Shown: piece by piece, positions 975 through 27,688 of the stretch
Numbering within the stretch: position 1 is the stretch's first letter
Layout of the letters: every line of letters begins with the position of its first letter
Origin: Owenia fusiformis
Taxonomy: Eukaryota
NCBI GenBank assembly: GCA_903813345.2
Contig: CAIIXF020000001.1
Location: forward strand, 7,006,001 to 7,070,000
Length of the DNA stretch: 64,000 nucleotides
Direction of reading: 5' to 3'
Made by a program: the position numbers and the translations under genes
The notes under the pieces: model-generated
Told to the model about the DNA's origin: nothing
What the model saw: only the letters and a program-made list of their open reading frames with translations
Database searches by the model: none

Positions 975-3900
975 TGTACTAGGAGACTCTAAGTGTGTGA
1001 AGCTGTTGCCTTTGGATGCTTTGCTACATTGCTGCTTCTTCATATTTAGCATGTTAAGGGTAGATATTCTATTAGTTATGTTATATATGGAGGTTTTTAA
1101 TGGGAGGGATGGAATATGAATTTTATTCTGAGGGAAAATATGATATTGGTCAAGAAAAATATCATATTGAGCGAGGGTGATAGCCCGAGTGTCAGTATGA
1201 TATTTTCAGAGGTCTACATCTTATCCCCCTCAGTCTATATCATATCGCCCTCGGTCAATTTGATAATTTCCTTGGCCAATATAATATTTTCCCTCAGAAT
1301 AAAATTCATTCCACCCCTCCCATTAAATAAACTCTATTTATTTTTTGTTATTTGTTTCTACTTTAGTTATAATTTACTGTGTACACTTTTTATTTGTATC
1401 ATATAAAAAGTGATAGCCCCTTGTTCAAAGGCCTCTAAACTATTCATTTGACACTTTTTACATTTTTTACATTTTACATTACTGTGTTGCAATTATTTGT
1501 ATGTTAAATTAGACATTAGCTTGTCATAAACTTTACCTTTCAAACATTTCAAAAGTTGAAACTCAATGTATATTATATTTGGTAAAACTGTAGTACTATA
1601 AAAGGAAAGCAGTTTTCAATGTTGTTGCCTATCATGCACTCTATATAATATCTAGTGACTGTTTATGCTCATTGAAGGTGGTGAAACAAACAAAATGGAA
1701 ATTTTCATGTTGACCCTTTTCATCAAAGAAGACCACATCATGATCTACAGTTGCTGGAATAAGAGAGTGTCAATTATCTTTGTGTGATAAAATATATCTA
1801 CATGTATCATGGAGTATTTCCCATGATACATGAAATTAATGTACTATGAAATTAATTTATTTAAAAAACAGAATTCACTCCTTTAGTAAATATACTGCTC
1901 TAAAAATAGGAAAAGTCACCTTCATAAAGCATGGAACTAGACATTTATATAGAATGTATCTTATTCTCATGAAATGAACATTATCCTTGCTTGTAAACAT
2001 CATATCACTTCATGTAGGACTTCTCAATTCTTTGTTATAGAGCCTGGTTACTATAGCTTTTATGTCACCACCACAGATCACAAGTGGTGACATATTGTTA
2101 TAGTCTCCTTAGTAACCTTTTGTGCATTTTAAGTTTGGAAACGGAATATTGAATATGAATACTAGAAAGGGCTAGGGAATATGAAGACAAACATATGGAA
2201 GAATATAAAATCCTACCACCCATGCTGCCCCTCTTAGTCCCCCCCATGGAAACAACCCTGAATGCCTAAGCAATTTCTGTTTCAGTTTGGAGTGTGTAAG
2301 AATGGCCTTATGTTCTGGTCATCACTGAGCACCATTGTTGACATCTTCACCATTCCACAACCTTTCATTGCAATCTATCTGGGCAGAAACTGGCTTGGTA
2401 AGTGGCATGATTTTCACTTCTTTTTTCATTGTTTGATTGAATCATTTAATATAATATCTTGAGAAAAAATTAGATGAAATCAGTATCAGTATTTGGTTAT
2501 TTATTTTATCTGGTAAATTACCAATTGTGTTTCGTCAGTTTGAAGTGTAAATAGAGTCAATTTTTCTTTTCTGAAAATATAAATCTTTTTTATTCTAATT
2601 TTTTCTACATGTGACATATACCTAATGTAGCACCTTATCAAATAACTTTGACCACTGTTATACTTAAAAAGGCCCCCCCAATGGCAGATTGAGTCAATGA
2701 GTGCATAACATGTGTAGTATATGATGGTCACAATGTCTGTTCACATATCTGTTCACATTAATGTTCCCTCAGCAGTGGGTGTATTGCTAATCCTATTAGT
2801 GTGATGCACCATGCATTAATCTTGTACAAATGAAGGAAAATACAAACCTGGGATATGGACATTTTCCAAATATGTCAAGGCTAAAATAGTTATGAAATTA
2901 ATTTTATTCAGCTTAAATATTTTCATCCCAATTAATAAGGTTCAGTATGGGTAAAGCAGTCAAGCCAGCTGTCCATTGTTCTATTTATTGTTATACATGA
3001 AGTAAAACCTCTGTATAGTGAACACCTATAGAGCCACAAAATAGTGTTCACTGTAGGTAGGTGTTCCCTGCAGAGGATTTTTAAACAGGAGTCAATGTGG
3101 TGCGTGTCTTGAAGTGGTTTTCACTAAACACAGGTGTTCACAAGAGAGAGGTGTTCACATGTATTATGTGGCAAATATGTCATCGTATATTTGGTATTAT
3201 AAATGGGAGTCACTTTTTATGTGTTTCAATCAAACCCCAAAGTTAGCAATCAAAGAAACACAGTACATTAGTATATGGAAAAATGCTTCAAATTTTTGGT
3301 TCGAGTCTTGTATATTTCAGATAGATTAGTTTTATGTACAGTTACCATTTGGCCTCTTGTAATTTAGGGATTTTTATCCATAATACTTTTTTCAAAAATA
3401 ACATGTCATGTTTTCATATAATTAAAATGTAATTTATTAAGTATTCTGTTTTTTCTTCATCAATTTATAAAGTTTATCAACATTTTAATTTTTGAGTACT
3501 ATTTTATCACTCATGATATATGAATTATATAATAATATATGATAATAAATTAGTACTCTTAATATGAGCGCTCAATGAGTAATGAAAAATCAATGAAATT
3601 AGTGCTATTTCATCCCTCATGATATGTGTACTCATTTAGTACTAAAACATGCACTAATTAGTACTCATAGAATGAGTGCTCATTGAGTAATGAAAAATCA
3701 ATGAAATTAGCGCTATTTTATCACTCATCATATGAGTACTCATTTAGTACTAAAACATGCAATAAATCAGTACTCATGTCATTACTGCTCATTTAGTACT
3801 AATATTTACTGAACTGAGTACTAAAATGCCATGAGTACTATTTTAGTACTCGGTAAATCTCCCTGTGTACCTGTCCTTTAATATTTTTGACATTTGATTG

Positions 3901-6900
3901 TAGGTCTTAGATTTCTGAGGGCCTTAAATCTGATAATGGTTGCTGAAATATTACAGCTTCTTGGCTGGTTGAGGTCAAGGAACAGTATCAGAATGACTAC
4001 TCTAGCAATGATCTTTACTGGGGTCTGGCTCTCAACATCAGGATTTGTACATCTTGTAAGTAAAGAACATGAAATGTTTGTATTTTGACACTCAAACTTG
4101 GTTCTTGTAGTAACTATAATAAAGCACTAATATATTTAGTTTATATTTGTATATAGCACTGTTCTTCTCAAGTTTACAAATATATCAGTGATTTTTTTAT
4201 GTTCATATGAAACCAAGTTAAATTGCAATTTAATTAGCTAAATGCCTTCCTCTGTATGAGTTTGTGCATTTCTTTTATAGTCTATAGATTGGTTTTGATT
4301 CTTTGAATGATTTCTTTATATTATATCCTTACATGGTTGTAATTTAGGTAGAAAACACTGGGGATCCCTTTTATGAGTACAACAATGGTCAAAGCCTCAC
4401 ATATTGGGATTCAGTCTACTACATGTTGGTTACTATGTCTACTGTTGGCTTTGGAGACATCAGCTGTGTAACTGTAACAGGAAAGATCTTCATAACTGCA
4501 TTTATTATAGGATCTTACGTGAGTAGTTTAATGCATCAATTATGTTTTAACCAATCTGCTTTCAAAGTAATATGTTCGAACCAATTTTGTTTCAAAATGC
4601 AAATTCTAACAACCACACATCAGGATATGATTTTGCCTATCCTAAACCAAGATATGTTTTTCTTCAATATTTGTTTGTATTTTCATTTTGAAAAAGGTTG
4701 TGTCAGCTTTGGATATACTGGTCGCTAGATACAATGTATAGACTGTGGACTGATTTAACAGCATGATAATATGCTTGAGTGATTTCTGAACCACAAGCCT
4801 ATGAAATAACATTTTACGTGTGCACAAAATAGATTTCATATAAAAATCAAAATGTGTGTCTATGCTGTAAGCCTTACATAAAGTAAATCACTTACATAGT
4901 GGTCACTTACAAGCTTACTGGCACTTACTCACTCGCCTTCCTTAAATGTCCTTAAATGTTGTTTTATGTATAACTTGAAATGCTAGCCTATAATGCAAAG
5001 TGCGCTAGGCAGCAACTACTGTAATTACTGTATACCTTTGAATTGAATAAATATATAATGAAATGAACGTAGTGGTCACTATGGTGGTTGCTTATGTTTT
5101 AGGTGATGTTTGGTAACATCATATCAGAAGTGATTTCATCAATGGCTACTAGCTCCAGACGCATGTACAGGAATTGCGATCACATCTATACTAGAAAGTA
5201 AATATGCTATTCTTACATCTGTACATCTATTCTGTTTGAAATCATGAAATAGGCATGTCATATTGTTGATACATTACAGTATTTTACTGTCAACAATCTT
5301 TTCAATTTTAAAACTTTTATATGGCTCTTTGGTGATATATTTTAATGGTAGTACAAAATACCCCAAAGATGAATAAAGAAAAATTACCCTAAGCTGTCAA
5401 AAACTTCCATTTTTCACCTTCATAATGTCAATGGGTTTGTGTAGACATCATTTATTAAAGCGAAAATTTAAAAGAATATTTTATTTTTATTGTGAATCAT
5501 ATGACTTTTGAACAATTTAACACTCATGTGATTTAAATTTGTCAAACAATATGCACTTTTCTTAACGACATATATATTTTCCAGGTTTGTAATAGTATGT
5601 GGACACATCACCTGCCATTCTGTCACTTCATTTCTGAAAGATTACTTGCAGAGAGATACACACATACAAGGCATAAGAGTGATATTTGTGCACAAGTAAG
5701 AGATACACAATACACATACATAGGCTTGCATACATCACTCTCTTTTTATGTCACCCCCAAAAATTGAATTTATTTTTCAAAACCATTTATGAGTTCTCAG
5801 AAGTTCAAATCTGACTATACATTTGAGATTTGACCTTCGATGACCTTCTCAAGGTCAAAAAAAGGTCAAAGGGTATTTTTCATATTGTTTCAAATTGACC
5901 AATTTTTTCAAAATCATCTACAAGTACTCAGAAATTCAAATCTGTCATAAGATTTGAGATTTGACCTTCAATGACATTCTCAAGGTAAACAAGGCCAAAA
6001 GGTCTTTTTACAAGCTGCTCAAAATTGCCCAAGTTTAATTTTCAAAATATCTAAATTGACATGAAACATGACTACTACAGTGATCATCAATTTGGCATGT
6101 TTTATAATGTTTAACTTTTAGCAAAATCTGGTACATATTATGAGACTTGTGCTTACATTTAACTTTTGATCACTCTAGTTAGCTAAATACAGTATTGTGT
6201 GAAATTAGGTGGTAAGTGACATTTTTTCATGTTTTAACATTAAAATGCCTTGTCACCTTTCTGTCAACACAAACACAATGCTATTACTATGTTGTATCTA
6301 AAGTTGCTAGTATTTGCAGGGATCCCCCAGGTGAGGAGCTGGAACTAGTCATAAAGACGAACTTCACTCAGGTGCGATACTTCCAAGGTTCAGTCCTCAA
6401 TGATGCAGACCTTCAAGCCATGCATGTAAGTACATAGGTAGTCTAATGCACAGCCTAAACAAATACCACAATTTGAGGCAATCCTCTCCATGGATCTGTT
6501 TTCTTAGTGTCTCGCGTCTTGTTTTCTGAGAGTACATTAAGGTCATTAAATTCATTTTTGGTCAAAATCATATGATGAAAGCAAATGTTTTAGATTGTTT
6601 AATAGATTCTGCCTGTAGCTCATATTTGAGCATGTATCCTGGCCAGAGAGAGAAAACTGTCTGTTTTCGTCAAATACCATTTATAGATAAAATGACTGTA
6701 AACCTAATTCAGCTACAAGACAAGGAACAAGGAATGTTTTATTTTCAGACATATAAGAAGTCCATTCTTACTCTATTTTACTCAAAGTTATACATTTGCA
6801 TGTTTATCACTTTTTCAATACTTTTCATTGTACTAAGTTGTCAATTTCATCTCCAGATGAGCTCAGCAGATGCATGTCTGATTCTATCAAACAAGTGTAC

Positions 6901-9900
6901 ACCAGAGCCCTATGAGGAGGATGTTGCCAACATTATGAGGTGTACAAGTGTTAAGACATTCAGGCCAAATATCAGAGTCATCATGCAAGTCTTACAGTAT
7001 AGAAACAAGGTTAGTGGTTCAACAATGTATGCAATGTATGTAACACATTTCAATATGTCAGTTTCAAGTAAACTGAAGGTTTTGGGGAATTAGGATATTG
7101 TCGCGTTCCAGACTTTTGCCTATAGTCTGGAAGCGATGAGTAATTTTCTACCTTATACTTCTTTGTGGGCCCAGTCCTGGTTTGGTGGACTGGATGAAAC
7201 GACAGTCACAAATGGCTTCAAATTTAATACATATATTTTAACACACACTAACTATACAAGAAAATAACACACTTTAATGCTCATAGACTAAAATGTCACT
7301 TTGATCTCTCTTTATAAGCTTGGTAGTGGCCGTTACTGCTTTCTTACTGCTTCCTATGGCTCTTAAGCTCTTTACTCGGCTCCTCTGCCTCTTTATGGCT
7401 CGTAATTTTGGCTCAGCTCCTCTGGCTCTTCGTTCAGCTCCTCTGGCTCTTGAGCTTGGCTCTTCTGGCTCTTAAGCTTGGCTCCTCTGGCTCCTGAACG
7501 TGGCTCCTCTGGCTCTTCGTTCAGCTCTCTTTGGCTCTTTAGCCTGGCTCCTCTTGAGCTTGGCTCTTCTGGCTCCTGAACTTGGCTCCTCTAGCTCCTC
7601 GTTCAGCTCTTTGGCTCTTTAGCCTGGCTCCTCTTGAGCTTGGCTCTTCTGGCTCCTGAACTTGGCTCTTCTAGCTCCTCGTTCAGCTCTTCTGGCTCTT
7701 GAGCTTGGCTGCTCTGGCTCTTCGTTCAGCTCTCTGGCTCTTTAGCCTGGCTCCTCTTGAGCTTGGCTCTTCTGGCTCTTAAGCTTGGCTCCTCTGGCTC
7801 CTGAACGTGGCTCCTCTGGCTCTTCGTTCAGCTCTCTTTGGCTCTTGACTTTTCCAGGGAGGCTCCTCACTGCTCGATGCGATGGAAGTCTTCCTGGAAC
7901 TACTTCTGTCAGCGGTGAAACCAACTGACAAAATACTTCTCTGTGTTGGGAAGTTTCTCAATTGCACCTTACAGCTAGTGGTGGAACCGAACTAACTGTA
8001 ATGCAAGGTTGCTTCCAGAATGTTCCTTGCTGCTTCCTCAAGGACAACACTGAGCTCTGAATCTCTTTACAGCACTCTTAAGAATGGAAGTATGAAGCTA
8101 TTCTTGCTTTCAATTAAATCTAACAAATATCTCACTAACTTAGAAAGCCTGGGACACAAAATGGCGACACACAGTAGATCTGGATACCTAATGAACTAGA
8201 AATTACGATCAGTCAGAGGCATCTCAGTAGCATGCTGATCATAAAGTCACAAATTCTGGTACACTTGAAATTCAAAGTTATAGTCAGTCAGAGGCATCTA
8301 GTAGCATGCTGGCCATAAAATCACATAAACAAAAAGGAAAAATCTCACCCGAATCAGTGCTGCTTTCTCTTAGGCCCAAAAATTCGAGTTTCCTCTCCTG
8401 TTTCTCCTTCTAAAACGTCCTGGTGTGTCTTCCCGCTTTATTCTTCTTAACTAATCCCAAATCACTGGCTGATGGCTACTCCAAAGCACGATAATTGTAG
8501 ATTTTCTTCCAAACCTCAATTCACACTGCTTCATTCAAGATGGCGACCTTCCTTTTTTCTCACGTGATGGCATGAGTCATAGGCACAGGTTATCACTATT
8601 TAAAATCAGGGGCACTGCATTGCAGCAATTGAGGGGAATCCCCTTCCTATCTTGGAATACCCACTTGTGAGCAGGGGTTTTCCTATCCCTTGCATAAATG
8701 GACTAATAACCATAAAACTGCACCAGTGGGAAAATTAAAAAGGATAAACACAAAAAATGAAATTTTCCCACAATATCATATTTTTATTTTCTTGTTGTTA
8801 TGTTTTTGAATTGTGCAAATTTTCAGATGTCCTTTTATACCTGATACTCCTCAATTTAAAGGCTTAATAGCTATACATATTTTTGGGGCCTTGAAGACGC
8901 TTGATAGCTATAAAGAGATTACTCATACTTGTCAATATGTTGTGTATTCTTATTTTCTCAATGTTGCTATTTGTGCACATTTTATCTAAACATACATGTT
9001 GACACTCTATGTGTTACTTTCAGCAAAGGTTGAAGAATGTTCCACATTGGAATCCAACAAGGGGTGATGAGGTTATATGTGTTACTGAGCTCACCCTCAA
9101 CCTGATGGGTCAACATTGCATCAGTCCATGTCTGCCAACCCTAGTTGCTAACATCATCAGGCCATACTCATCTGTGGCTAAACATAAGGTGCAGATTTTG
9201 CCTCACTTTTGGAATTATGTTGTGGTACTAAGATTGTTATTATGTAAAGTTGCTGTCACATGGGGGATACATGTATCTTGTTTTAAATCTGTTTGTTTTG
9301 CACCATGTATCCATCATGTATGCCGTGCCCCACTGTAAACCCAAAAGTATTCATACAGTGGCAAACGGTGCGCACACACAGTTTAAGGGGAGGCATCAAA
9401 AGTTCGATGTCGGATAGAAAACTAAATAAATCTAGTTAGGGGGAGGGGGCTCAAACCCATATCATATCAGTTTGCTATCCGACAAATTTCAACATTTCAA
9501 ATTTTGGGCAATTTTGACTCAGAATGCCTTGGAATGGTTTAAAAATAAAGGTTTTACCTGATGCTTTCTTCGTCAAGATCATTCTAATAGACTCTATTCT
9601 ATCAATAATTGTTAAAAGCCGCAAATAACGATAGGAATTAACAAAAACTAGATCATGTTTAGCAATAATTTTTCAAATTCTCAAACCGGAAGTCCAATAT
9701 CAACTTTCATGGTATTTAGTTTTGAGGGGGAGGAGGGGGGGTCAAAGTCAAAACTGGATTTATTTAGTTTCCGATCCGACATTGAACTTTTGATGCCTCC
9801 CCTAAGTGTGACAGCTCCATATATAACTATAGAGAGTAAGTTATGATATGACCTATTCGCTCAAGATATTTTGGCACAGCCCCAGGAACATGTATAAAAA

Positions 9901-12900
9901 ATCGAGTCATCATCTGAATAAGTAATACAGATGTCGACTCGATATTTGTATACATGTTCCCTGGGCCTATGGCTGTATTTAAGATTGTAAGATGTATGGT
10001 GTTTATTTCAGATCTACAAACTTGAGAGCTGGGAGAAGTCTTATCATGAAGGTCTCAAAATGGAGGTCTATAATGTTGCATTACACAGAAGTTTCAATGG
10101 CATGCCATTTAGTGAGGCCGCAAAGTAATACATTATTGCATTATTGTTTTCTGAAGCCATGCTACAGAGGCATCGGTGACATACTAGTTAAATCAAGAAT
10201 AACAAATTAAAATGAAATTCTAGAAAACAAACAAGTAGCTTATTTGATAAATAACATCACGGGATAAACAGAGCAATTGAATTCAAGGTATCTAATAGTA
10301 CATGGGCAGTGCCTGAGCCCTGCAATACTCGTCTGGTCTTTAAACATAAAATTGGTATTCATATATTATTGTGCCGTAATTCTCAATCTTTATTCCTTAA
10401 ATAGAAATGGTCCTTATATTTTTGTAGAATATGTTACTGTGAACTGGATGTGCTCCTCATTGCCTTGTATACACCTGCTTCTCAGGGTGAAGATCCTTCA
10501 GATGTTTGTAGCACATTTCTAGTCAACCCGTCTGAGGACTCAGTACACAGTAGAAGTGTAGGGGTCTGCATAGCATCTTCTGCTGCTACAGCTAAACAGT
10601 ACGTACATATACATGACAGTTGGTGTTTGGTGGTTGGTGCTCGGCGTCTGTAACAAGTGGCAGGTGGTGACATTTTGCATGTTAATGCCTTGTTATCCAA
10701 TACTATGGAGAGGTATAATTTTGATGGTTAATTAAATAACATCCATACTCATCATGTTCCATCACCATTCTGATTCTTTATGATATCATAATACGAGATG
10801 AATTCATCCTTAAACAATATTAATTGGCTTGTTCAATACATCGCTTGTTCAATAGTCAAAACTATTGACCACTCATTGACCAATCAGAGTTGAGTATTTT
10901 GACTAAGTTAGTAATAAAATGAATAGTACATGGTAGTTTTTTAGCTCACATGGTGAGCTTTTGCAATCGCTCACTTATCCATCTGTCTGTCCGTCCGTCC
11001 GTCTGTCTGTCCGTCCGTCAACAATAGTGGCACGTTTTAAAACCTCTGTCGATAGGATTCCTGTTTTAAGTTATTTCTGTTCAACATCAATACAGAAAAC
11101 TCCCCTATGACTCCTGGTTAAAAAGCTCGCCTATTTTCAAAATGGCCGCCATTTTTGTCTCGCGAAATTCACTTTTGACTGGCACGTTTTAAAACCTCTG
11201 TCCATAGGATTCCTGTTTTAAGTTATTTCTGTTCAACATCAATACTGAAAACTCCCTTATGACTCCTGGCTCAAAAGCTCGCCTATTTTCAAAAAGGCCG
11301 CCATTTTTGTCTCGCGAAATTCACTTTTGACCTATTTCCTACCTTTACAAATAATTTCAAGTGTCCTACATTGTAAAAATCCATGTCAATGTAAAGAGTA
11401 GATGTATGAAATAATTTTGTTACGAAAAATCAGCAAAAAATTATATCCATTTTTTTTATTTTCAGCCATTTTAGTTAACATTGATTTGTCCATCTGTCTT
11501 GCAAAATCCACTTTTGGACCATTTGCCTTAAACCCTCTGTCGATAGAATTCCTGTTTAAGTTAATTTTGTTCAACATCAATACAAAAAAACTCTCCTATG
11601 AGTATGACTCTTGGTTCAAAAGCTCGCCTATTTTCAAAATGGTCACCATTCTTGTCTCGCGAAATTCACTTTTGGCCCATTTCCTAGCTTTACAAATAAT
11701 TTCAGCTGTCCTGCATTGTAAAAAGCCATGTCACTGTAAAGAGTAGTTGTATGAAATAATTTTGTTACAAAAAGTCGGCAAAATATTATATCAGTTTTTT
11801 TTTTTCAGCCATTTTAGTTAACATTGATTCGTCCATCTGTCTCTCAGTCAGTCCAAAAAAGTGGCAAGTTTTAAACCTCTGTCAACACTTTTTAAATCCT
11901 CTGTAGATAGGATTCCCGATTTAAAATAATTTTGTTCAACATCAATAAAGAAAAAAAAACTGTGACTCCTGCTTCAAAATATCGCCTAATTTCAAAGGCC
12001 ACCATTTTTGTCTCGGGAAATTCACTTTTGGCCCATTTCCTAGCTTTACAAATAAGTTCAGGTGTCCTGCATTGTAAAAAGCCATGTCTTTGTAAAGAGT
12101 AGTTGTATGAAATAATTTTGTCATAAAAAATCTGCAAAAAATTATACCCGTCTTTTTTATTTTCACTTTTGAGCAACACCATGTGAGCCCAGTACCCACG
12201 GTACTAATTTTGTATTAAATGTCTCGTTCAATATACAATAAATTGACCTGAAGATGTAGTCATTTAAATCTACATATAATCATCTTCACTCTTCAGTAAT
12301 CGAGCTGTGTGTCATTAGTAAATCATATTTTAAAAAATGTGATAATATTCAAAACTTTAAAATACAACATAATTGCATGGTTGTTGTTCAAGCTTTAATG
12401 GTTTCTTAGGTATGTTCATCGTCTGTGCCAGAATATAATTGTATGGTGGGTGTTCTAGCTAGCTCTAAGAGTTGACAATAATTGCATGGTTAGTTTTCTT
12501 GCTCTAGGATATTAACATTGTCTGTTGTTTAAGTTAGATAGTTTCATGGTTTATCTGTTAATCTATTCAATAGTTGTATATTATAACTGCATGTATATTG
12601 AAATAAAGGTCACACAACATTATCATACATATACGTGTATACATATGTATTTCTAATTTTATTTATGAAAATTCATTATAGAGTGTCAACTTGGTGTACA
12701 CAATGTCTTCATCACCATGGTGACCATGACTGTTTCGCAGACCAGCCAACCAAATCAGTCAGCAAAAAAGGTACATTTCATTTCAAAATATGAGACAGGG
12801 GGTAGAAACAAATACAGTGAATGCATAATGGCATGTTCTTAATGCATTTAGGTTATGAACATTTCCAATGAATTGTGGGTTATGTTGTAGCAATCATCAA

Positions 12901-15900
12901 ATTAGTTTTGACACTAAGTGCAACAAGACTTGGCAATTTCACATGCCTCGAAAGAACACTAATTGTGATGTCTGATTTCCTGTTGGTTTTCTATTATGGT
13001 TTATGATTTCCCATTACTTTTTTTTTTTAGAATACACACTGGTTTACAATATATTGCCACAGCCCCCAAGGCATCTTAACTCCACCACAAGTCATTTGTT
13101 ACCAGATCAGTGCAGAACTGAATCTAATGGAGCTGTGAAAAATTATGAAGAAGCTATATGGGTTTCAAGGCCAGCACCTACTTTAAGGTATTTTCATTGT
13201 TCAATCAGTGAGATTATGATTTAAAAATTCAATGTAATTTATTCTTTAAGGTAAATAATAAGCAACTCTATGGTTTACATCTATCTAGCTCTTATACTGT
13301 ACTTCTACCTGTATTGCCATGGAGTATGCTCATGTTATCATGCCTAACCATCGACAATGTACTGTGGCAAAATATATGGTTGTACACTTTAACTGTACAT
13401 TGTCATATTTGTATCAAAAATTATGATGTTTTAAAAGATTAATTTAAGGAATATTAAGTAGAATTTCATGTTTAATTTTATATACATGCTCTTCGCAAGA
13501 CTTTTAACTTTCTCAATACTTTAATAGATTCTCGAGCAATACTCAAATTTTTTCTCGATAATTCCACCCACATAGTTGACCAGTTCAAAAATGTTGGTTA
13601 TATTCACATGGATATGGGTGGAATTACCTAGAGAAAATTTGTGCTCTGCTTGAGAATCTGTTAACGTAATTAAAAAATTCTTGCCAAGAGCATGCACATT
13701 AAACATGAATTGAACATGAAATACTCAAACATATTCCTCAGATAAATATTTTAAAACCTACATCACAATTTTTACTTCAAATTACTACTTTTTGTCACTG
13801 TATGTTGTCAATGGCTAGGCGTGACGTTATAAGCTTGGTAATATTTAAAGGAATAACAATTAACTACAGTACATGTACGTGCCGATGCCCATATATCCCC
13901 CTTATGTTTCCAAGATGTACAACCTGTAATCAATTAATGTATTACTGTATTTTTTTATTTTCATAGGGACAATATACCTTTACTTACTGTTGAAACAAGG
14001 AAGGCCAGCATATGTAAGAGACCACAATGTAAACAGAGTGTGACATCACCAACTACATCTAGATCTTACTACTGGACAAGGCAACACTCAGTCGAAGATG
14101 CAATACTTGTAATACATTTTTACATATTTATTGAATTGTTGATTCAAATTGTTGATGAAAAACTAGCTGCATAGGTCTATTGACATAGGGTCAGAATCGG
14201 CTTTGGCATGAGTTAGAAACCTGTCGACATCACAATTAATCACAGTACAGTTTAATGCAGAAATGCAAGAAAATATAGAGCACACCACCTTACTCTGTTT
14301 CAGACTATAAGCTCTGTGAATCTAGAAAGTAAAACACAAGTTTGATTAGAGTTCTCTTAAGTTTTTCCCAAATGAACATTTACTATTTTAACACTACATT
14401 CCTTGGTGTTCAGATCTTCTTTTCTTCTTCCAAACTGCTAATCTCCATTAAATATATGCTTCTTTAAATTATTTTCCAGACTTCCAAAATGGATGACAAA
14501 AAGTGTGCTATATTACAGAAGCATATAATCGCCATAGTGATAGCCAGTGGAACTGATCCAATTATTCAGCTTGAAAACTTTGTTAAACCCTTGAGGACAA
14601 TAGATAAAGACTATGATGATTTGAGGCCAATAGTTCTTGTTGGTGACAGATATTACCTGGAGAGGGAGTGGGCTAGTTTACAACATTATCCAAAGATTTA
14701 TATTCATGAAGTAAGATCATCACTGGAATAACTATTAGTATAATTCATGTGTTTCAGGTATAAATATCATCTAGTAATCCAAGTATATTCAAACATAAAG
14801 CCTTATATTCCATGTAATAATTGGGTACGAATTGCAAATTGACCATACACATATATTGGTTGTATAATGCCATTTTTCAGTTCCAAACGACCCAAACAAC
14901 AGATAAGGTCCTTGACTTCAAAATGTTTAAGTACCTGATATCCATATTTTTCAGAGTTACCCCATTTTACCTCAAGTTTTAGAAGACGTGAATATTAGAC
15001 AAGCGTCATCCTGTGTCATCCTTTCTGCTGCTAGAGGGAGCTGTTCACACCCAGAATTACGGGACAAGGATGTTGTCATGTGTGCCTTGGAAGTGCAGTC
15101 CCTACTTAGAGAAAACCTGGATTGCAGAATGGTGAATTATGCAGGTGCATCAAATCCAGGTTAGACATAATTAATATAAGGAAAGGAACTACTTTTATAT
15201 GTAGATATGGTACTAGCCCACCAGAAAATATCAGTGTTCATTCATATTTCAAGTTTTTCTCAAAAAGTGTAAATGAACTGCTTGAATTTTGGTGTTTATA
15301 CAAGTTTGATAGTTGACGTCATGCCTGTTTATCAAATGGCAGATAGTTACATTATACTGCAAACCATTTAAATTTGTACGTGCATAATGTATGGTACTAA
15401 ATTGGGTGGATTCTAAAAGATTTGTTTGCCTCATGTTACTTCAGAATACACTGTGCAATCATCAGACTACAACTTTTCTCCAACACCAACTAAGACAAAC
15501 CTTCTAGTCGAGACAGCCAATGATTCCAGCGTGCAGTATCTAGGCAGAGAAAGCACACTGTCCATAGCCATCATGGATTCACTCGTTGTGTCAGTGAGTA
15601 TAATCATACTAGATTGTATACAACACTCACAATTGCATGTCAAACACTGCTTATGGACCCATATGTCCATAGAGGGAAAAGAATGTTTCAAACAACATTC
15701 ATTTCAACATATCCAAAACTTAAAACTTTTAATTTTTTTTTAATTTTTAAACCTTTGAAACTTTCCCGGGAGCAGGATATATTGTATCTGCCTGGAGCGG
15801 GACATATACAATATATCCTGCCCGCTCCTTAGATATGATGTATATTCCCAGGTGATATCTACCCCGAACCCACTCAAGTATGAGATACTGGTTGATATTT

Positions 15901-16916
15901 TCTAGACATATTACTCCCCCTGTGTATCCATGGTGGTTAATACTTTGTCCAGTGGTAGCAGTAGTGATGTAGCATCATTCACAAATCACAAAGGGGAGCA
16001 GACCAGTAGGAATCAAGTCACAACAATAACACTTGAGGATGGAGAATATTCTGAGTATAAGGTATACAGTATTGAATAATAGATCATTTCATTTAAGTTT
16101 TAAAGTGAAGATGAACCATGTTGTCACTTGAAATAACATGTTGTTTGATCTTTTCTGTGACATAATAACATTGTAATATGACCTTAAAATCAGTTGTGGT
16201 GAAAGTAACTTTCAAAGGCAATTTACATAAAAATATGTGTCTGAGCGTTGGCAATGTTTACTTTCAATTTCAACAACTTATTCTTTTATATTCAGAATGG
16301 TTACTATGGGGATCTATTTTCCCATGCACTAGTGACCAATGGTGTGTTGTGTCTGGGAGTACGGAGAAAGTGCAGCCAAACCTTTGGGCAGGAAAACAGG
16401 AGAGTCATCACAAATCCACAAAGCAGTTTTAGACTGAATTCTTCTGACAGTGTAAGAAAATGAACGATCTGATACAAAAATCTGGATCCTTAATTTTTGA
16501 TTACATATACTTTTAATTGCCACTATTGTTTGATTAATATTGTATTTTGATATAGTATTTTTGTGTATTTACACTTGTATTTTCTGGACCATGATTCTTA
16601 TTTATTTATTAACCATCAATGAAGATGACTTGGACATTTTGAAACAAAGTGAAATTTATGAGCAAAAATATAGTAGACATATTTTATTAACTTGTTCAGC
16701 ATCAGGTCTGGGAACCCCTCCCTCCCTCTGACCCTCCCCATCTACATGTACATGGCTTTCCCTCTTGGAGTGGTTAGTAGGGAGGGGGGGGGGACTGGGG
16801 CAATGGTATTGAACTAAAATATTGAAGTAATTGCTCTCTATTTTCAGGTATATTGTTTGTTGCCTCAAGAAAACCCAATGCAGGACAATGGGAACATTAC
16901 CATATCTGAAATATGA
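975..16916 (+). CDS. Divergent Slo1/BK (KCNMA1/KCNU1-family) potassium channel alpha subunit; 5' end (S0-S1) not identified in window
   Basis: Phase-consistent GT-AG exons: 975(or 958)-1059, 2286-2397, 3904-4055, 4348-4518, 5103-5197, 5585-5695, 6320-6425, 6857-7009, 9024-9188, 10012-10124, 10428-10598, 12682-12770, 13031-13187, 13967-14108, 14480-14710, 14955-15159(or 15144), 15445-15593, 15906-16061, 16296-16451, 16848-16916 (TGA). The translation is collinear with BK: S2 LPLDALLHCCFFIFSMLR, S3 IVDIFTIPQPFIAIYLGRNWLG, S4 LRFLRALNL, pore VTMSTVGFGD, RCK1 VCGHIT..FLKD/FTQV.YFQGSVLN/ADACLILSNK/EDVANIMR, RCK2 NFVKPLR/YLEREW/CVILSA/YGDLF/VITNP. No in-frame stops. Confidence 0.92.
1087..1337. repeat. 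Palindromic (foldback) MITE-like repeat
   Basis: ~90-bp inverted arms (taatgggagggatggaatatgaattttattctgagggaaaat / attttccctcagaataaaattcat..cctcccatta). Relatives at 58750-58912, 58995-59145, 38385-38572 and 15765-15888. Confidence 0.8.
3490..3870. repeat. AGTACT-rich ~109-bp tandem repeat / MITE remnant
   Basis: Repeated gagtaatgaaaaatcaatgaaattag and multiple GAGTACT/AGTACTC palindromes. Confidence 0.7.
7099..8772. mobile_element. Probable solo LTR (1674 bp) with internal GGCTC(C/T)TCT-rich tandem array
   Basis: TGT...ACA termini, flanked by ATAT on both sides (7095-7098, 8773-8776). Higher GC than the host intron. No coding domain. Confidence 0.65.
7355..7850. repeat. GC-rich degenerate tandem repeat (GGCTCCTCT/GGCTCTT subunits)
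   Basis: Repeated ctggctcttcgttcagctc / gagcttggctcttctggctc units visible directly. Confidence 0.9.
9387..9802. mobile_element. PIF/Harbinger-like MITE
   Basis: TAA|GGGGAGGCATCAAAAGTTC...GAACTTTTGATGCCTCCCC|TAA, ~50-bp TIRs. Confidence 0.8.
10938..12210 (+). mobile_element. HINE-like element (second family)
   Basis: TTTTTAGCTCACATGGTGAGC, (GTCC/GTCT)n microsatellite, internal tandem repeats, and 3' CCATGTGAGC + AGTACCcacGGTACT hairpin + T-run. Confidence 0.75.
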
Positions 16917-17186
16917 TCAAGATCACAATCTGTGGTGTGAAACAGTGGCAGGATTTAGTGGAAATGCTTATTGGAATAACATGTTAGATTTGAAACTTTG
17001 CTAATGTATATATCATCGAATGGGATTTTAGGTCTGCATTGTATTGTATTTTCGTTACCGCCATATTTTGGCGAGCAGTACCTCATTGGTATATTCCATA
17101 TTTTACTTACGAGAACATGTATTTACACTCGAAGACAGAGCCAGTAACCCCTCCTAGGAGGAGCCCTGTGTTCTATGTGCTCCAAA

Positions 17187-17340
17187 TACACAGACATACA
17201 AGGACACACAACAGCCTTTTTAAAGTTGTGGGTCAAACACCCTGAATTACAAAATGCACAAATTTGTCTGAATCGGGAATCGAATGTGGGTCAGCAACAG
17301 TGGTAACCTTGGCTCTGCCAATGAGCCATAGTAGATGGAC
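17187..17340 (-). mobile_element. tRNA-derived SINE copy
   Basis: Shares tacacagacatacaag, aaatttgtctgaa, agtggtaacct and ccaatgagccatag with the 27-kb copy. B-box-like TTCGATTCCC. Confidence 0.65.
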
Positions 17341-17666
17341 TAAAAAGGAATTAAGGACAGTTATGGTTAAATGTTTGATTTGGTATTGATCAGTAAAGCT
17401 GAATTTACTATTGGAGTTGTTGCCACAAAATTACTAAACTATAGACATACACAGGACTCTTGCTGGAGAATTTTAAATAAATGTAGCTTCAGAACTAAAG
17501 TACCATATATCTCCAAATAAAAATGCTTTCTACGTGCCTGAATATCATAATTACTCCATATTTATATACAAAATGTAAATATACTTATTAATTAAATGTT
17601 TTTCATTTAGGAGACTATATGTAGCATATATATATATAAATTATTCATAAATCTTTTGAAGAATAA

Positions 17667-17900
17667 GGAAGCATCTCAAAAGTTCAATGTTTGATGGATT
17701 ACTAACTGTATTTGAACAGTTAATCTGTGACTCCTCCTCCCCCTTATAACTTTGTTTGGGAAATGTTGATTTCGTTGGTCACACTATATATTATAATTAT
17801 TCACTGTCAGTAAGATGATTTTTAATGTTATTAACCCCCTTCCCCCTATAACTGTTCAAATACACTTAATTTTCTGACACCGATATTTTGAAATGCTCCC
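17667..17900. mobile_element. Harbinger-like MITE (older, termini similar to the 9387 element)
   Basis: TAA|GGAAGCATCTCAAAA...TTTTGAAATGCTCCC|TAA. Confidence 0.6.
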
Positions 17901-21021: not shown

Positions 21022-24000
21022 TTACCTTCTCAAATTTTTTGGATGACTAATTTTTTCTTTTACTTCTTCCGCCATAGGCTTTAATTTCTCAACATAGTCC
21101 CCATGTCTTTTCTCAGATATTGTAGCTAAAAGTCCCCCTTCACATTTAGGCTTGTTACCATCTGAATAGTCTATATAGCTACCATCCAGTGTTGTCATTT
21201 TGCCTTTTATGGCATTTAATATTGCATTTCCTGCACATATATCCCATTTCTTAATGAGTGTTGTATGAACATAGGCATCAACGTTACCCAGGGCAACTTC
21301 TATAGATTTAAACCCTGAAAATATTGAGATAATAGAATGTTATTTTACAACTATAGTTAAATACAATTTGTCTCTTTGTCATGCTTCAAGCCGCATCAAG
21401 CAAATATCAAATCACATATCATATCAAAATTCTTCAATAGGTCCATCACAAAAAAACAAATTAAATATCTTATTTTTAAATTAAGAATTTATCATCATTT
21501 ATATTGTGAAACTCTTGTCATGTGTTAATGAAAAGGTAGTACAGTATAACCAACCATGCAATTTGGTACAGTAAACCCTGTTACACTAAAAGGTGTTTGG
21601 TGTTCCATTTATAAAGGTTTGATCAATATTAATCGGTGTGTCACAGAATGTGAACTGGTTTCATTTTACAAAGGTGTTCTGCAGGGTGAGCCAAAAAACA
21701 GTAACCAAAACATTAAAATTTGTTTGGTCTTTTTTGACTCACCCTGTACTTTACTGATTTAACTGAATTTTAGTCCTGTCTCTCACAATTATTCTTTGAA
21801 ATCTTACCTGCTCCACCTGCTGGGACAACTTTGGTTTTCTCACCAAATGTTTTCTTTGCAATACTTTCCACTTCACCAGCATGTGACCTAGAGACTATAA
21901 TCTTGTATTCGTTCCCCTCTTTCTCTTTATCCTGGTCTTCTGGCACTATAAGATTCTTGGAGTGGCCATAGCCTTCCCATGCCCATACTGCAAGTAGTCA
22001 ATTACAATGGTGATGGGTGGTCAAAATATATTATATGACAATACTCCAGAATCTGGGTTTTTACTGAAATATTGCAGTTGAGTTTATACAAACATTTTGT
22101 CTTTCTCAAAAATTTACTACACACATCATTGCCATTGATTTCATAAGGCTGCAAATGTCAGCAAACCTTTTTAACTGCTACAACAACAACTCTAGGGTAT
22201 GGTAAATTCCATCATACAATTTTGTCAAGCTTATTTACATTTTCTTGATCTTTTTTATATGACACATACCAGGTCGTTCAATAAGTTCACGGAAAAATGC
22301 TCTCATTTCAAAGATTCTTGATATTTTCCCATAAAATTTTCACACAATGTGCAAAAAATACTTTCTCATCGATTCCTAAAATATCAGCATCTCATATTTG
22401 ATTGGTCAAAAACAAGGGTTACTATGGTAATTTGACTTTTGGGTAGGCGGGGCACTTTTTACGTCACACTATTTACCATTACAGATATCTATCAATATGT
22501 GCAAATGAAGGATCCCTATTTTTTATTTGTTCTTATTTATATTACAAATGTTCTGAGGGAAAATTGATGTTCATTGTTATCACGAACATTTCTGAAATCA
22601 TGCTAGTCAATGCTGTACCAGTGGACCAGAAAATCAACAAAGAGTAATGCTATGGAAAGTTGATTAAAACTTAACCATCCAGCCAAACTCTAACTTTTTC
22701 CATCGGGATAATGCAGCCGATCACACTGCTAATATTGTGCAGGAAACCATCACAATTAATTGGCAAAATAGATGGCAAAGCTGCCCCAAGCTACATAATC
22801 TCCAGATGAGATAATCCTTGATTTTGCTGTTTTCACGAGGATGAAGGATCAGCTAAGAAGTGCACTTTATGGAACAATGAAACAACTTTCGACTGTAGTC
22901 AAGATTGCCTTTTAAACAAGTTTTCCAGATGGCTTCAGAGCACTGTATCGTCAATAGGCTAAATGCAAGCGACTGTGCATTAAACATGAGGCGGGAGAAT
23001 ATTTCTGAAACCTTATGGGACAATAGTTGTAACTATTACATTAAGTTATATCATGTACAAGTAGAAGAGGAAATTCATGTGATATGTATACTCACAAATT
23101 GCCTACTATTCTTTTGTTTTTCTAATAAATAATCAATGTGACGTAAAAAGTGCCCCGCCTACCCAAAAGTCAAGTTACCATAGTAACCATTATTTTTGAC
23201 CAATCAAATAAGAGATGCTGATATTTTAATATTCAATCAGAAAGTATTTTTTATTCATTGTGTGAACATTTCATTAGAAATTATCAAAAATCTTTGAAAT
23301 GAGAGCATTTTTCCGTGAATTTATTGAACGACCTGGTAGTCATGTTTATTACTCCAAGGGATATCAAATTATTGCTAAAATCATGGTATGTCCCTTTAAT
23401 ATATAATATTAGGCAAAGGTTATGAAATCTTGTGTTTAACATTATAATTTTGAGTTGCAGAAGAATGAATGATTTTTTTATTTCTTTAGTACCTTTATAT
23501 CTATGTATAATCAAACATAAAGTACACTAGTTTTGGTATGCTAGGATAATGGTCTATTTTATATCATTAATGGACATAATCAACAGAAGTTTGAAATGAA
23601 TAAGCTGAGACATGCTAAACATTATTTTCATTTACCTTTGCCTTTTATGTATTCAATTATAACCTACTTGTTTCTCCCTCCCCTTTCTGAGCGAAGGGTT
23701 TGTGTATGATCCCCATGACAGGACGTCCCCTCAATGCTACACATGTCATCACAGTAACATACTCTGTAAGCTTTTCTAAAATGAAACACATCAAAGGAAT
23801 TAAAAAAATACAGAATGATTTTCATGATCCTAGAGATTTTGAACATGAAAATTACACAGCTTTTTTTGATTTTTTTCCTGACAAATCTAATTTTAACATA
23901 AAATGACAGAAATGCTTTAAAATGCAATAATGGCAATTTTGAAGTGATAATATTAAAGTTTGTTTCAAGACCGCATATCGTGAAATAACTTCAGTATTTG

Positions 24001-27000
24001 AGTACTTAATTCCTTTCTAATTGGACATATTTTAATTTTGGTATTTTTGGTGTCATACAATTCCTTGAACAGATCTGGGAGTACTTATTCAAGGTTATTC
24101 AAAATCTGTACTACCTGTGCACATTTTGTGTAATTTGCATTCATAAGAACAGGACAAAATACTTAGGTCCTCGCATATAAATCATTTAGGCCAAGAAAAA
24201 TACTCTCATTCCTGGTCAACAAGCTTCAAAATTAACACCTTCCTGCCGGACTAATTTTTTTCCTTGAACCTTTGCCGCCAAACTCTTATCACAAAACTTC
24301 CTTGGCCAATACTCTGCGATTTTACTCTCACTTTAATAATCATCAAAATATGTAAGATAACATTCTCACATGTTTTAAAAACAGACATAATGTTGCCTTA
24401 CAGGTGATACTATTGAATGGGCATTTAATTTGAATTATTGATCTTAACCAACAGCTTCATCCAACAATTCATCATAAATTACCATTTGAAGTACTTCACA
24501 CAAGTACAAGCTTTACATGTAAGCATATGTTTTGGTAATAAACAAGTATTGATTCGCAGCATGTATGAAAATACCATTTTTAGAAATTATAGAAGAAGGT
24601 TTTTAGCAATAATTATAGATTTTTACATGACTAAGGGTTTAACACAGTGAAACCTGTAAAGGTGAACACTTCTACAAATGGGACACTTCAATAAGGAAAA
24701 CTTTAAAGGTGCCAAAGGTGTTTCGCTTATACAGGTTTTACTTCTTGTATTCACTTTTATCATTGACTTGTAAAGGAAAAACTGTAAAAAATTTCCTAAT
24801 CATCATTTTCCCAATCGAATTTTTCCCAATCACCATTTCAGTTTATAATGTGTTTATGGACTGGGATTTTGAACCAAATGATATATAGATATGTTAGTTA
24901 GAGTATTCATGTAAAATTACATCAATATTTTGATCTGGTCCCTTTGTTAGAAAGAAATCAATATCTCACTACATGTTGATTCAGGAGTAAAAACATTAAA
25001 TAACCTGTTACATTGAAAGAAATACATTACTTCATGGCTGTGTAAATATAGAATAACAGCATAGAATAAGATTTCTGAGAAACACTTTTCTAAAATAAAC
25101 ATTAATATTAAACTATCAAAAAATTAAAATGTTCAAAATCCTGTGATGCCATTGCTGTACAATGCAAGAAAGGAGATGTAGTTTGTCACCCTTGTCTTTC
25201 CAATCAAGATCTATCAATTATTTCGCATTTGAAAGAGCCTATGGATTGGCATTCAGAGTTTTAGTGGATTTTGAGTGGACCAACATGAAAAAAAGTTCAG
25301 CAGTCCAATGCGGACATTCCTGAAGTCAACCATGTGCATCCTGAAGTTAATGTACATAATCTCATGCATTATGTTTTGTATCATGAGACCTTGTGTGATG
25401 CCGTTAAGTTCTGCTATTCTGTGTGACATTCCAAAAAGTCTCAGAATAATTAAAACTTTGAACAGCGAAAATAAATTCTTTTGTACATTTGCATTTGTGA
25501 TGCATCTTATTTGTCTTGAATACTCAAATATAATTGGTTACTATTTCTGAATTTTTCTTTTTGAGCCAATCAGAACACTTATAACAAAACATGACAAAGC
25601 TTTTAAGAAGAGAGTAGTATCTAACATTGGACTATCTTAATAATTTCATTTCTTTCTTTCTGGTTTGATAGGTCAAAAAAACAATTTAGAGGCAATTCAA
25701 ATTACAGGAAACCAAAAGCTAGCTATCATTTAATTCAAAGTCTTCAAAAAGTCAATGTCAGAGTCTAGAAAAAGCAACTTAAAGTAAGCTATATTAATGG
25801 GACCATCTTTATGTTCTTTATGATTAGATTTTGATGAGTAACATGCAACGTGAAAACGTCTTGCCACCTGACAAAACCCCCTTTCTATAGGACCCTGAAA
25901 GGGCTGGCATGATTTTGAAAAGCATACCATTTGTATCTTTCTTGATATTAGAGTATGACATTCTGGAATATAACAGAAATCAAATCTGTTGAACTTACAC
26001 CCATATTCCAAAATAAATGTCAAAAAACAAAAACATTATCATCCGATGCACCTACTAGAAAACTATGGACGGCAACTAAAACATCAATGTATAATAAATT
26101 CAAACCTGTGTATTCTTGTGTTGCATCTAAGGGGTCCATCCAGACTGTGACATCATCTAGGGCTACTTGGCTATCAGAATTTGTCCTATCCAGTACCTCA
26201 GCAAGACGTTTACTGACTGTTGGAATTGATTTAAAGTCAGCTGGTTCATGTTCATGCTCTTCAGAGACAACCTGTATGAATGCAATTCATAATGTAAACT
26301 TATAAAAACTTATATAAAAACACCACAGTAATAGCCTTTGATGGGACGATATGCAGGAAATAGGTCGGGAAATCTATCATGCCAGGGGCATGCCAGGTTC
26401 ATTTTTTTGGTTTGCTCTTTCATGAATGTGCAAAAGTGAATAAACTTAACTCTATTCCTTAACGAAGAGCTAGTAGTTTGAAACGCTCGCAGAATTTACT
26501 GACTCAAGAAGCAAAATGAACATATGACCTCTGCAATTTGAGATAACTGGAACTTTTGTGACTTTGACAGAACATAGGGAATGAATGTTAGCATCTATTG
26601 AAGTAAACAAGATAATCCAGTGAAAACTGATCTACTTTTTATGAAAGAAAAAGGCCATGAACAAAGCAACATGTTAATTTATATGACATCATAGATTAAT
26701 ATAGAATCAATATTGATGTACATGTATGTGATGTTAAGATTATCTGTTTGTTTAGTTGTCGCTGGGGAAACATGTGACTGATGTCATAATTGATGTGATA
26801 TTTCATATCTTCGAATCACAACCTCATCATATGACGACTTGATAGTTGCCTTACCAACTCGCCATATAAGCTAATAAAGACGGGCTTACTGAACTGGAAG
26901 TCCCATGAAGGGTTCAAGCCTGATCCATAGAAAGGATGCTCCACCCAATCCGTGTAGGCCTTCGTAAAAATGGGTGTATGCACTGATACACAGACATACA

Positions 27001-27688
27001 AGTATACACTGCAGCCTTTTATACAAGCTGTGGACCACTCAGTCAAACACCCAGAATGAGATAACGCACCAAAAAATTTGTCTGAACTGGGAATCAAACC
27101 CGGGCCAAGCGATAGTGGTAACCTAGCCTCTCCCAATGAGCCATAGCGAGTGGACCGAAAGTATAGACTTTTGAAAAATAAGTGGCTTAATGAGACGTCT
27201 AAATTAGTGAATAACATAAGGTAAATGTAAGTCTATATATCTATCTATGTCTAGGCCTATAGCTATTCCCGTACATGTAATGTAGCTATTATTCTATTGA
27301 ATAAATTTTGAATTTATCAAGTTTTAATCTACATGACACAATTTTTAGCTCTATTGATACTTACATTTATGCCTGGAAAGGATTTGAAGTATCCATAGTA
27401 TATAGCTCGATGTGATTCCATATCACCACTTGTGACATACTCATTTTTACCCTGTTGAGTTTTTCCCTTGACTTTTTCTGCCAAGTTGTCATCATTTCTG
27501 ATTTCCCTCACTCTTTCACCGCCTCTTTTTGCAAGTTCAATGCTGACTGACAATAGTTCTCTCATGCTAATAGTTTCCCGCCTTTTAAATATATCTATTC
27601 CACCTAATAAGTAGAAGACAACACTGCCAAACAAGACTAGAATCAGGACAATCCCGATAGGGTTTACCTTGACACTTACTGCAGCCAT
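21022..27688 (-). CDS. IMPAD1: Golgi-resident PAP 3'-phosphatase / inositol monophosphatase domain protein (IMPAD1/BPNT2), ~356 aa
   Basis: Exons 27688-27365, 26271-26106, 23775-23668, 21987-21808, 21314-21022 (TAA). N-terminal TM ([19 protein letters not shown]). Motifs [53 protein letters not shown]. Upstream in-frame ATGs extend to 27745, so the start codon is uncertain. Confidence 0.93.
22269..23336 (+). mobile_element. Decayed, internally deleted mariner transposon with ~200-bp TIRs
   Basis: TA|CCAGGTCGTTCAATAA...TTATTGAACGACCTGG|TA. Internal remnants [10 protein letters not shown] (22701), [12 protein letters not shown] and [10 protein letters not shown] resemble mariner HDNA..H, YSPDL..DF and C-terminal GEYF motifs. 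Contains stops and a frameshift. Confidence 0.85.
26987..27156 (-). mobile_element. tRNA-derived SINE copy
   Basis: Minus-strand A box TGGCTCATTGG (27143-27133) and B box GGTTTGATTCCC (27100-27089). Homologous to 17187-17340. Confidence 0.7.

Follow-up and report, generated by a model that had tools for sequence, protein, structure and literature searches.

We analysed a 64,000-nucleotide stretch of the Owenia fusiformis genome (assembly GCA_903813345.2, contig CAIIXF020000001.1, positions 7,006,001 to 7,070,000 of the forward strand; hereafter the window, in whose numbering all positions are given). Most of one gene lies at positions 2274-16916 on the (+) strand; it encodes a paralogue of the Slo1/BK potassium channel alpha-subunit that has diverged very far, and the exon at 15445-15593 of this gene, which corresponds to the exon that carries the Ca2+ bowl of the second RCK domain (RCK2) in canonical Slo1, lacks the bowl loop. 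The window is ~33% G+C, and its introns are short and of the GT..AG type.

Loss of the calcium-bowl loop

Exon 15445-15593 (+) lies between an AG acceptor (15443-15444) and a GTGAGT donor (15594-15599). Its in-frame reading is YTVQSSDYNFSPTPTKTNLLVETANDSSVQYLGRESTLSIAIMDSLVVS, within which the bowl region runs ...VQYL-GRE-STLSIAIMDSLVVS. The original prediction had placed the exon at these coordinates and read it in this way, and both the splice signals and the in-frame translation agree with it.

Reference Slo1 sequences were obtained by back-translating the 9-residue bowl motif, which is printed identically in PMC2229562 and PMC2151572, and scanning it against metagenome contigs, which gave 116 loci. 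A Slo-type bowl is present at 100 of these, and the whole canonical stretch through DSLMS[T/A] at 94, of which 15 continue as spliced, cDNA-like sequence while 79 have GT next, marking the exon end. Our canonical set consists of loci L105, L109, L111 and L038, with L100 added in the alignment of spliced RCK2 sequences; the open frames of L105, L109 and L111 (1118, 1110 and 1123 residues) represent Slo1 between the S0 region and the C-terminal end, both included. A gap-free alignment of 66 residues of L105 with residues 492-557 of Aplysia BK has ~88% identity, as counted by hand on a printed alignment, and L105 was tied in this manner to the numbering of Aplysia and human BK and used to map E535. 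The states of the functional sites are given in human numbering from alignments to Protein Data Bank (PDB) sequences. In the mouse channel the bowl stretch begins at residue 883 and is conserved from nematode to human except for one residue (PMC2217328), and the acidic run is numbered 892-902 (PMC10163825). We found no printed version of the downstream bowl flank in Creative Commons (CC)-licensed PMC papers or bioRxiv. Among the other loci, L011, L017 and L093 carry a Slo-like bowl exon with an intact acidic run and flanks unlike those of canonical Slo1, and may represent another divergent Slo paralogue that kept the bowl. In addition, L026, L047, L068 and L078 each hold two to four partial bowl-exon copies in tandem within 1.5-3 kb, so that the bowl exon appears to have been duplicated locally in at least one animal genome.

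When the RCK2 product of the window gene is aligned to the five canonical Slo1 sequences using MAFFT, a single gap of exactly 18 columns opens between VQYLGRE and STLS. This gap faces DQDDDDDPD and the residues after it, as far as [L/M]TQPFACG, and the GRE of the window exon is paired with the DQD that opens the acidic run. An identical 18-column gap is obtained in a second alignment, in which exon 15445-15593 alone is compared with four canonical sequences; N25, D26, V29, Q30, L32, D44, S45 and L46 are invariant in all five rows. No aspartate of the acidic run is left in the window exon, the equivalents of D895 and D897 included. The 3' end of the exon coincides with the intron position directly after DSLMS[T/A], where GT is found in 79 of the 79 genomic canonical loci. 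Because both flanks align and the intron position is common to the canonical loci, we regard the flanks as homologous and place the missing piece within one exon. Eighteen residues, which make up the Ca2+ bowl and the first part of the strand behind it, have thus been lost in frame from a single exon, and GRE bridges the flanks. This is what had been predicted from the DNA letters, namely that about 18 residues including every bowl aspartate are missing between two alignable flanks, and the comparison with Slo1 proposed at that time now yields one 18-residue gap against the canonical references.

A local-repeat check revealed no local duplication that might explain the deletion. The intron letters at 15605-15646 (frame 1, behind the donor) were considered as a relic of the bowl because 7 of 14 residues are identical to the second half of the bowl loop. 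This resemblance is probably due to chance; its score is reached by 26 of 1989 shuffles and is equalled or exceeded at two further places in the window.

Support from DNA and RNA sequencing runs

Four sequencing runs (X1, X3, X10 and X23) were compared with positions 13900-17900 of the window. DNA contigs from X1 (14949-15812) and X3 (15440-15676) cross the exon and include intron sequence; X3 is labelled 'RNA?' but covers introns and hence behaves as DNA. Both contigs carry single-letter differences of their own, so that they are not copies of the assembly. A contig of 757 nt from X10 (depth 7.7) contains the joints 14108|14480, 14710|14955, 15159|15445 and 15593|15906, all of them GT..AG, which identifies it as spliced RNA; the third joint is listed as 15156|15442 ('cut +3'), and the exon (listed as 15442-15593) is present with 0 other letters. 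Between 14905 and 15986 the runs have no listed insertion or deletion. X1 and X3 belong to two studies, and with the X10 RNA contig the length of the exon is therefore identical in three. The exon without the bowl is spliced into mRNA and has the same length in the DNA of other individuals, and the deletion is almost certainly real.

X23 consists of raw RNA reads, of which ~12% of the run was read. It contains the joint 16451|16848 in four reads and two other joints in single reads. Skipping of the bowl exon was considered in view of the zero depth over the exon in this run, and was rejected because the coverage is too thin for such a call; the exon is 149 nt long, so that skipping it would also shift the frame. 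Searches for a replacement exon were negative. No 9-residue window with at least six Asp or Glu residues exists in any (+) frame of 2000-17500, a tblastn search with three canonical bowl exons returned only the first half of the exon itself and noise, and no second bowl-like exon is present in the 64 kb. The claim that the gap is an artefact neither of exon calling nor of assembly is hence borne out by the X1 and X3 contigs, which have no indel, and by the X10 contig, which is spliced through the exon. Moreover, of the two observations named beforehand as fatal to it, the reads give no sign of an assembly deletion, and neither the one spliced RNA contig nor the scan of all (+) frames provides an alternative acidic exon.

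The spliced RCK2 coding sequence, from 14480 to 16916, is assembled from RNA-supported and consensus exons and comprises 966 nt, open throughout with a stop codon at its end. Of 77 single-letter differences seen among the runs, the best-supported 34 form our difference list. Fourteen of these 34 are coding (exons of 14480-16916), and 12 of the 14 are synonymous, compared to an expected fraction of 0.22 (binomial p 7e-7); in the exon at 15445-15593 itself all three listed differences are synonymous. The sole coding indel, an extra CAA behind 15986 that is present in X1, X3 and X10 and absent from the window, is in frame. Purifying selection thus acts on the RCK2 coding sequence. The exons upstream of it, for which L105 served as the model, are open and bounded by consensus splice sites, with no stop codon or frameshift. 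The gene is very probably functional.

Gene structure

The gene was followed in the 5' direction using homology to L105, PDB and Pfam alignments and consensus splice sites. An S2-S3 exon lies at 2274..2397 (+), its 5' start not fixed, and matches residues 156-197 of L105 with 47.6% identity (tblastn); its GTAAGT donor is placed by homology and consensus. The S4-S5 exon at 3904..4055 (+) aligns to human BK 204-258 (PDB, E 4e-12), with splice sites set by homology, and is followed by the pore exon at 4348..4518 (+), which contains TVGFGD, matches Pfam Ion_trans_2 (1.1e-12) and is 55% identical to L105. An exon at 5103..5197 (+), assigned through weak homology in a spliced-model search against L105, would contain the last part of S6 and the linker that leads to the first RCK domain (RCK1). 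RCK1 is distributed over six exons. Exon a at 5585..5695 (+) aligns to human BK 342-379 and belongs to Pfam Slo-like_RCK, exon b at 6320..6425 (+) aligns to Drosophila Slowpoke 392-430 and human BK 382-415 with Pfam agreeing, and exon c at 6857..7009 (+) aligns to human BK 414-467 (E 2e-13). Exon d at 9024..9188 (+), with its donor after 9173 or 9188, matches Pfam BK_channel_a and is placed by tblastn and the spliced model; exon e at 10012..10124 (+), whose first base is 10012 or 10027, also matches BK_channel_a and aligns to L105 514-548 (tblastn). Exon f at 10428..10605 (+), its 3' end not fixed, is placed by tblastn (28% identity, E 0.11) and the spliced model. No exon of the RCK1-RCK2 linker was identified between 10606 and 13966 by homology to L105.

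The exon before RCK2 lies at 13967..14108 (+), preceded by AG at 13965-13966; the joint 14108|14480 is present in the X10 contig and in one X23 read, and a second X10 record covers 13965-14095. RCK2 then begins with exons at 14480..14710 (+), bounded by the X10 joints 14108|14480 and 14710|14955 and matching Pfam Slo-like_RCK (5.6e-11), and at 14955..15159 (+), which is bounded by X10 joints and aligns to human BK 788-832. Downstream of the bowl-flank exon, a fourth RCK2 exon at 15906..16061 (+) is entered through the joint 15593|15906, and its donor at 16062 is set by consensus only; compared with canonical Slo1 it contains a second gap, of 13 residues. The RCK2 C-lobe exon at 16296..16451 (+) matches Pfam Slowpoke_C (2.1e-10) and is joined (16451|16848, four X23 reads) to the last coding exon at 16848..16916 (+), in which that joint and the frame place the stop codon at 16914-16916.

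The introns and the 3' flank contain several repeats. Leucine-, serine- and alanine-rich open frames occupy all (+) frames of 7300-7990, and 10900-12200 holds one unit several times over. The intron after the bowl exon includes a very high-copy short element at 15772-15909, where the summed contig depth in X1 reaches ~276,000 compared with 60-74 in the flanks. Its inverted arms lie at 15772-15790 and 15803-15821, and many reads end at 15790 and 15888; the element looks like a miniature inverted-repeat transposable element (MITE). Further high-copy repeats, with X1 depth up to ~29,000, lie 3' of the stop codon at 16982-17383 and 17652-17785. Elsewhere in the window, 59235-60416 (-) is one long open frame of 393 residues that encodes a voltage-gated K+ channel core of the Kv type (Pfam Ion_trans 8e-56), its pore reading GYG, 21022-27748 (-) contains exons of an inositol monophosphatase-family gene, and 29397-29666 (+) is an exon of a ubiquitin-conjugating enzyme.

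Family placement

Successive (+) exons match, in order, Pfam Ion_trans_2, Slo-like_RCK (RCK1; three exons that span profile positions 2-119), BK_channel_a (two exons), Slo-like_RCK (RCK2) and Slowpoke_C. The gene thus has what characterises the Slo family, a single chain with a K+ pore and, behind it, a pair of RCK domains. Nine exons or pieces of the gene were compared with PDB sequences; five match BK/Slo1 chains best and four have no BK match. Among the latter results, the bowl exon finds no match either whole or trimmed, the exon after it gives only chance matches to antibody light chains, and the E535 exon returns nothing at E <=0.01. The RCK1 exon at 6857..7009 matches BK at ~1e-13, human Slo3 at 3e-9 and Slo2 at 1e-3 to 3e-3, and we therefore rejected a Slo2/KCNT identity for the gene. 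Human Slo3 (4hpf) also scores below BK on all three exons for which both appear. The sequence has diverged considerably from canonical Slo1. Identity to the five canonical sequences is 27-31% in RCK2, whereas canonical proteins of different phyla share 65-68% with L105, and identity to L105 varies from 28% to 55% between exons.

A search of representative proteins using the RCK1 exon gave 370 matches, the best 150 being exon-sized fragments of 57-332 residues; no fragment that reaches RCK2 is among the RCK1-exon matches listed. In a tree of 51 residues of this exon the window gene pairs with P0031, which looks like a vertebrate Slo3, at a support of 0.79 that is subject to a risk of long-branch attraction. 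The pair lies inside a group of 11 divergent fragments and has a PEPY motif in common. Four public exon fragments from other divergent Slo1-like genes (P0005, P0014, P0056 and P0031) have some of the unusual RCK1-exon residues of the window gene (QYRNK, MRxT), and similar paralogues may, on such resemblances, exist in other animals.

Sensor and pore residues

Ca2+ sensing in BK has been assigned to D367, E535 and the backbone of R514 in RCK1 together with the side chains of D895 and D897 in the bowl, and Mg2+ sensing to D99, N172, E374 and E399 (PMC4319557). In the window gene, alignment to human BK 342-379 shows that D362 and D367 of the RCK1 Ca2+ site are kept, and the equivalents of E535 (KMEVY vs GMEMY) and R514 are likewise retained when mapped by tblastn through L105. 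The equivalent of M513 is isoleucine and stands beside a 2-residue gap, and the geometry of the RCK1 site is uncertain. The Mg2+ site differs from that of BK in that both glutamates are replaced by arginine (E374R, E399R), with Q397 kept; the N172 position is lysine in the window gene and alanine in canonical L105, and the exon for D99 was not found in the window. In BK, low millimolar Mg2+ is no longer sensed once the two glutamates have been replaced (E374A:E399N; PMC2151482). N449 of RCK1, which coordinates the bowl Ca2+ of the adjacent subunit and whose mutation to alanine lowers Ca2+ sensitivity (bioRxiv 10.1101/2022.12.15.520511), is represented by threonine, so that the neighbour-subunit ligand of the bowl has changed as well.

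The BK voltage-sensing residues are D153, R167, D186 and R213, and neutralising R213 abolishes Mg2+ sensitivity (PMC4319557). Alignment of S4 to human BK shows that R207, R210 and E219 are kept and that R213 is replaced by asparagine; in S2-S3, where tblastn with L105 and the human sequence were used, R167 is replaced by glutamine and D186 is kept. With these two replacements the gene does not have the voltage-sensing set of BK; an equivalent of D153 was not found in the window. That E374, E399 and R213 have all gone agrees with the electrostatic coupling of bound Mg2+ to R213 described in the same source (PMC4319557), and one might speculate that the two arginines at the Mg2+ site mimic the bound cation. 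The selectivity filter reads TVGFGD compared with TVGYGD in L105; because GFG is also a K+-channel signature (PMC4749565), selectivity for K+ is likely.

The sequence comparisons indicate that this is not BK with one lesion but a Slo1-type paralogue that has diverged strongly and has changes at its Mg2+ site, at N449 and at two of the voltage-sensing arginines too, and the loss of the bowl is hence part of a wider retooling. Since the gene departs from BK in three features by which BK is defined (bowl, Mg2+ site, gating arginines), we file it as a Slo1-derived paralogue rather than as BK proper.

Discussion

Our preferred explanation, including its proposed mechanism, is that the gene encodes a Slo1-type paralogue that has lost the bowl and in which Ca2+ sensing, if it persists, falls to RCK1, and we assign to it a probability of roughly 0.6. 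The protein would still assemble as a K+-selective tetramer with a gating ring. The Ca2+ site of RCK2 and the Mg2+ site would be lost, intrinsic voltage dependence would be weakened, and any activation by Ca2+ would proceed via the RCK1 site alone, with a sensitivity below that of BK. BK channels carrying 5D5N, D367A or M513I each lose only part of their Ca2+ sensitivity (PMC2151482). Retention of D367 and E535 under selection favours residual activation through RCK1. For the gating step taken separately, control by Ca2+ via RCK1 only is a tentative suggestion to which we would give slightly less than even odds, and a channel that is gated by another signal or is insensitive to Ca2+ is conceivable at odds distinctly below even.

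Several points weigh against this explanation. The M513 equivalent is isoleucine and M513I lowers the Ca2+ sensitivity of BK, so that the RCK1 site may be impaired as well. The selection ratio was computed on the best-supported 34 of 77 differences. RNA support for the bowl exon comes from one assembled contig of one run (X10, depth 7.7), while the X23 depth is 0 in both bins over the exon and ~0.5-5 in their neighbours, a coverage too thin to interpret. Protein searches with the bowl and pore exons gave no orthologue from another species, in a collection that seems to be without full animal Slo proteins. The joint 16061|16296, like every exon 5' of 13967, was placed by homology and consensus sites only. 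L105 1-155 (S0-S1) has no tblastn match in the window, and neither a start codon nor the linker exons were found, so that the open frame established here is a partial one. The 5' exons are either outside the window or too divergent to detect.

The most serious rival is a channel with the same deletion and no Ca2+ gating, Slo3-like either by convergence or by relationship, opened by a signal such as pH and possibly expressed in germ cells. In keeping with such a channel, bowl, Mg2+ site and N449 are lost together with two gating charges, and the M513 equivalent is changed; the pairing with P0031 (0.79 in the 51-residue tree) and the common PEPY motif would suit it as well; a missing poly-Asp bowl is, in addition, a criterion by which Slo3 is recognised (PMC5337896). 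On the other hand, a channel for which Ca2+ binding is irrelevant would not be expected to keep D367, D362 and E535 as this one does, human Slo3 falls below BK on three of three exons, and the tree is weak and prone to long-branch effects. Excerpts of a survey of six invertebrate genomes report only Slo1 in them (PMC5337896). On balance we regard this rival as unlikely. A more specific form of it, in which the gene would be an invertebrate counterpart of Slo3, that is, a Ca2+-independent and for example pH-gated K+ channel, perhaps of the gametes of a broadcast spawner, with an origin either convergent or shared from before the vertebrates, is in our opinion doubtful.

The short link between the flanks might instead be ancestral, and the gene a member of an old Slo lineage whose branching preceded the origin of the bowl. 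The very low identity of RCK2 to canonical Slo1 (27-31%) is in keeping with this, as is the lack of a close orthologue in the protein searches, given the apparent lack of full animal Slo proteins in the collection. The bowl flanks and the adjoining intron position are nevertheless common to canonical Slo1, BK is nearer than Slo2 on every exon tested, and the bowl is conserved from nematode to human (PMC2217328); we consider an ancestral short link improbable. That the gene is a decaying but transcribed duplicate, a pseudogene in the making that has no channel function, could be argued from the many conserved functional residues that are changed, from the two internal deletions in RCK2 and from the 5' end that was not found in the window. 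Such decay is very improbable in view of the 12:2 ratio of synonymous to non-synonymous differences (p 7e-7), the RCK2 half that is open with GT..AG sites throughout, the homology-defined upstream exons that are free of stop codons and frameshifts, and the preserved K+ filter and RCK fold signatures. Slo genes are known for alternative exons, and a minor splice form might bring in an acidic bowl from an alternative exon or splice site. The contigs represent the main form only and the raw RNA coverage is too thin to reveal a minor one, but the (+) frames of 2000-17500 contain no acidic stretch, the 64 kb hold no further bowl-like exon, and skipping the 149-nt exon would shift the frame, so that we find such a form hardly credible. 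Finally, an assembly error in which 54 bases were dropped from the exon, in favour of which we found no point, deserves next to no weight given that X1, X3 and X10, from three studies and each with its own differences, have the same exon length.

Relative to BK (human 6v22, Aplysia 5tj6), the Slo1-type paralogue proposed here has the same order of voltage sensor, pore, RCK1, BK_channel_a, RCK2 and Slowpoke_C, with BK the best PDB match for every matching exon, D362, D367, E535, Q397, D186 and E219 kept, and an intron at the same place after the bowl exon. It differs in the absence of the 18-residue bowl, in E374R, E399R, N449T, R167Q, R213N and GFG for GYG, in the second gap of 13 residues, and in an RCK2 identity of 27-31%. 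Slo3 is the pH-gated sperm channel of vertebrates; it keeps a non-acidic loop of similar length in place of the bowl, and its selectivity filter is GFG. Like the window gene, Slo3/KCNU1 is a Slo1-derived paralogue without a poly-Asp bowl, and there is a weak exon-level likeness to P0031, but excerpts of PMC5337896 report Slo3 from vertebrates only and list only Slo1 for amphioxus, Ciona, sea urchin, Saccoglossus, fly and worm. Slo2/KCNT channels, which are activated by Na+ and Cl-, are also members of the Slo family with a tandem-RCK ring and no Ca2+ bowl; their similarity to the window gene is far weaker (E 1e-3 vs 1e-13 for BK on the same exon). Engineered BK bowl mutants, such as 5D5N and the D965/D966 deletion, resemble the window gene in having lost bowl carboxylates with the RCK1 site in place, and they retain part of the Ca2+ response (PMC2151482, PMC2151572, PMC2229562). 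These mutants, however, have point changes or 2-residue deletions in a channel that is otherwise wild-type, whereas the window gene has no loop at all and many sensor residues are changed. Nearly all animals have one slo-1 gene (PMC4270693), and Slo-1.2 of trichocephalid nematodes is an extra Slo1-type gene of the sort said to be rare among invertebrates; no bowl loss is reported for those paralogues in the excerpts of that source, with which our comparison is by description only.

We found no description of a bowl-less Slo1 paralogue from an invertebrate in CC-licensed PMC papers and bioRxiv, where our searching was partly poorly targeted, and the gene may well sit unremarked in public annotation. 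Bowl-less Slo channels are already known (Slo2, Slo3); in the present case a sensor loop that is otherwise almost invariant has been cut out cleanly in nature, and the gene is still under selection. As a selected Slo1-type channel from which the whole bowl loop has been excised and in which the RCK1 carboxylates are kept, the gene offers a natural test of Ca2+ sensing. It makes testable whether the gating ring can assemble and work without a loop that sits at the subunit assembly interface, how much Ca2+ gating the RCK1 site contributes by itself in a protein that has evolved that way, and whether losses of the bowl, the Mg2+ site and R213 travel together with a GFG filter, as they apparently do in Slo3. 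If related species carry the gene too, it would add a branch to the Slo family outside the vertebrates.

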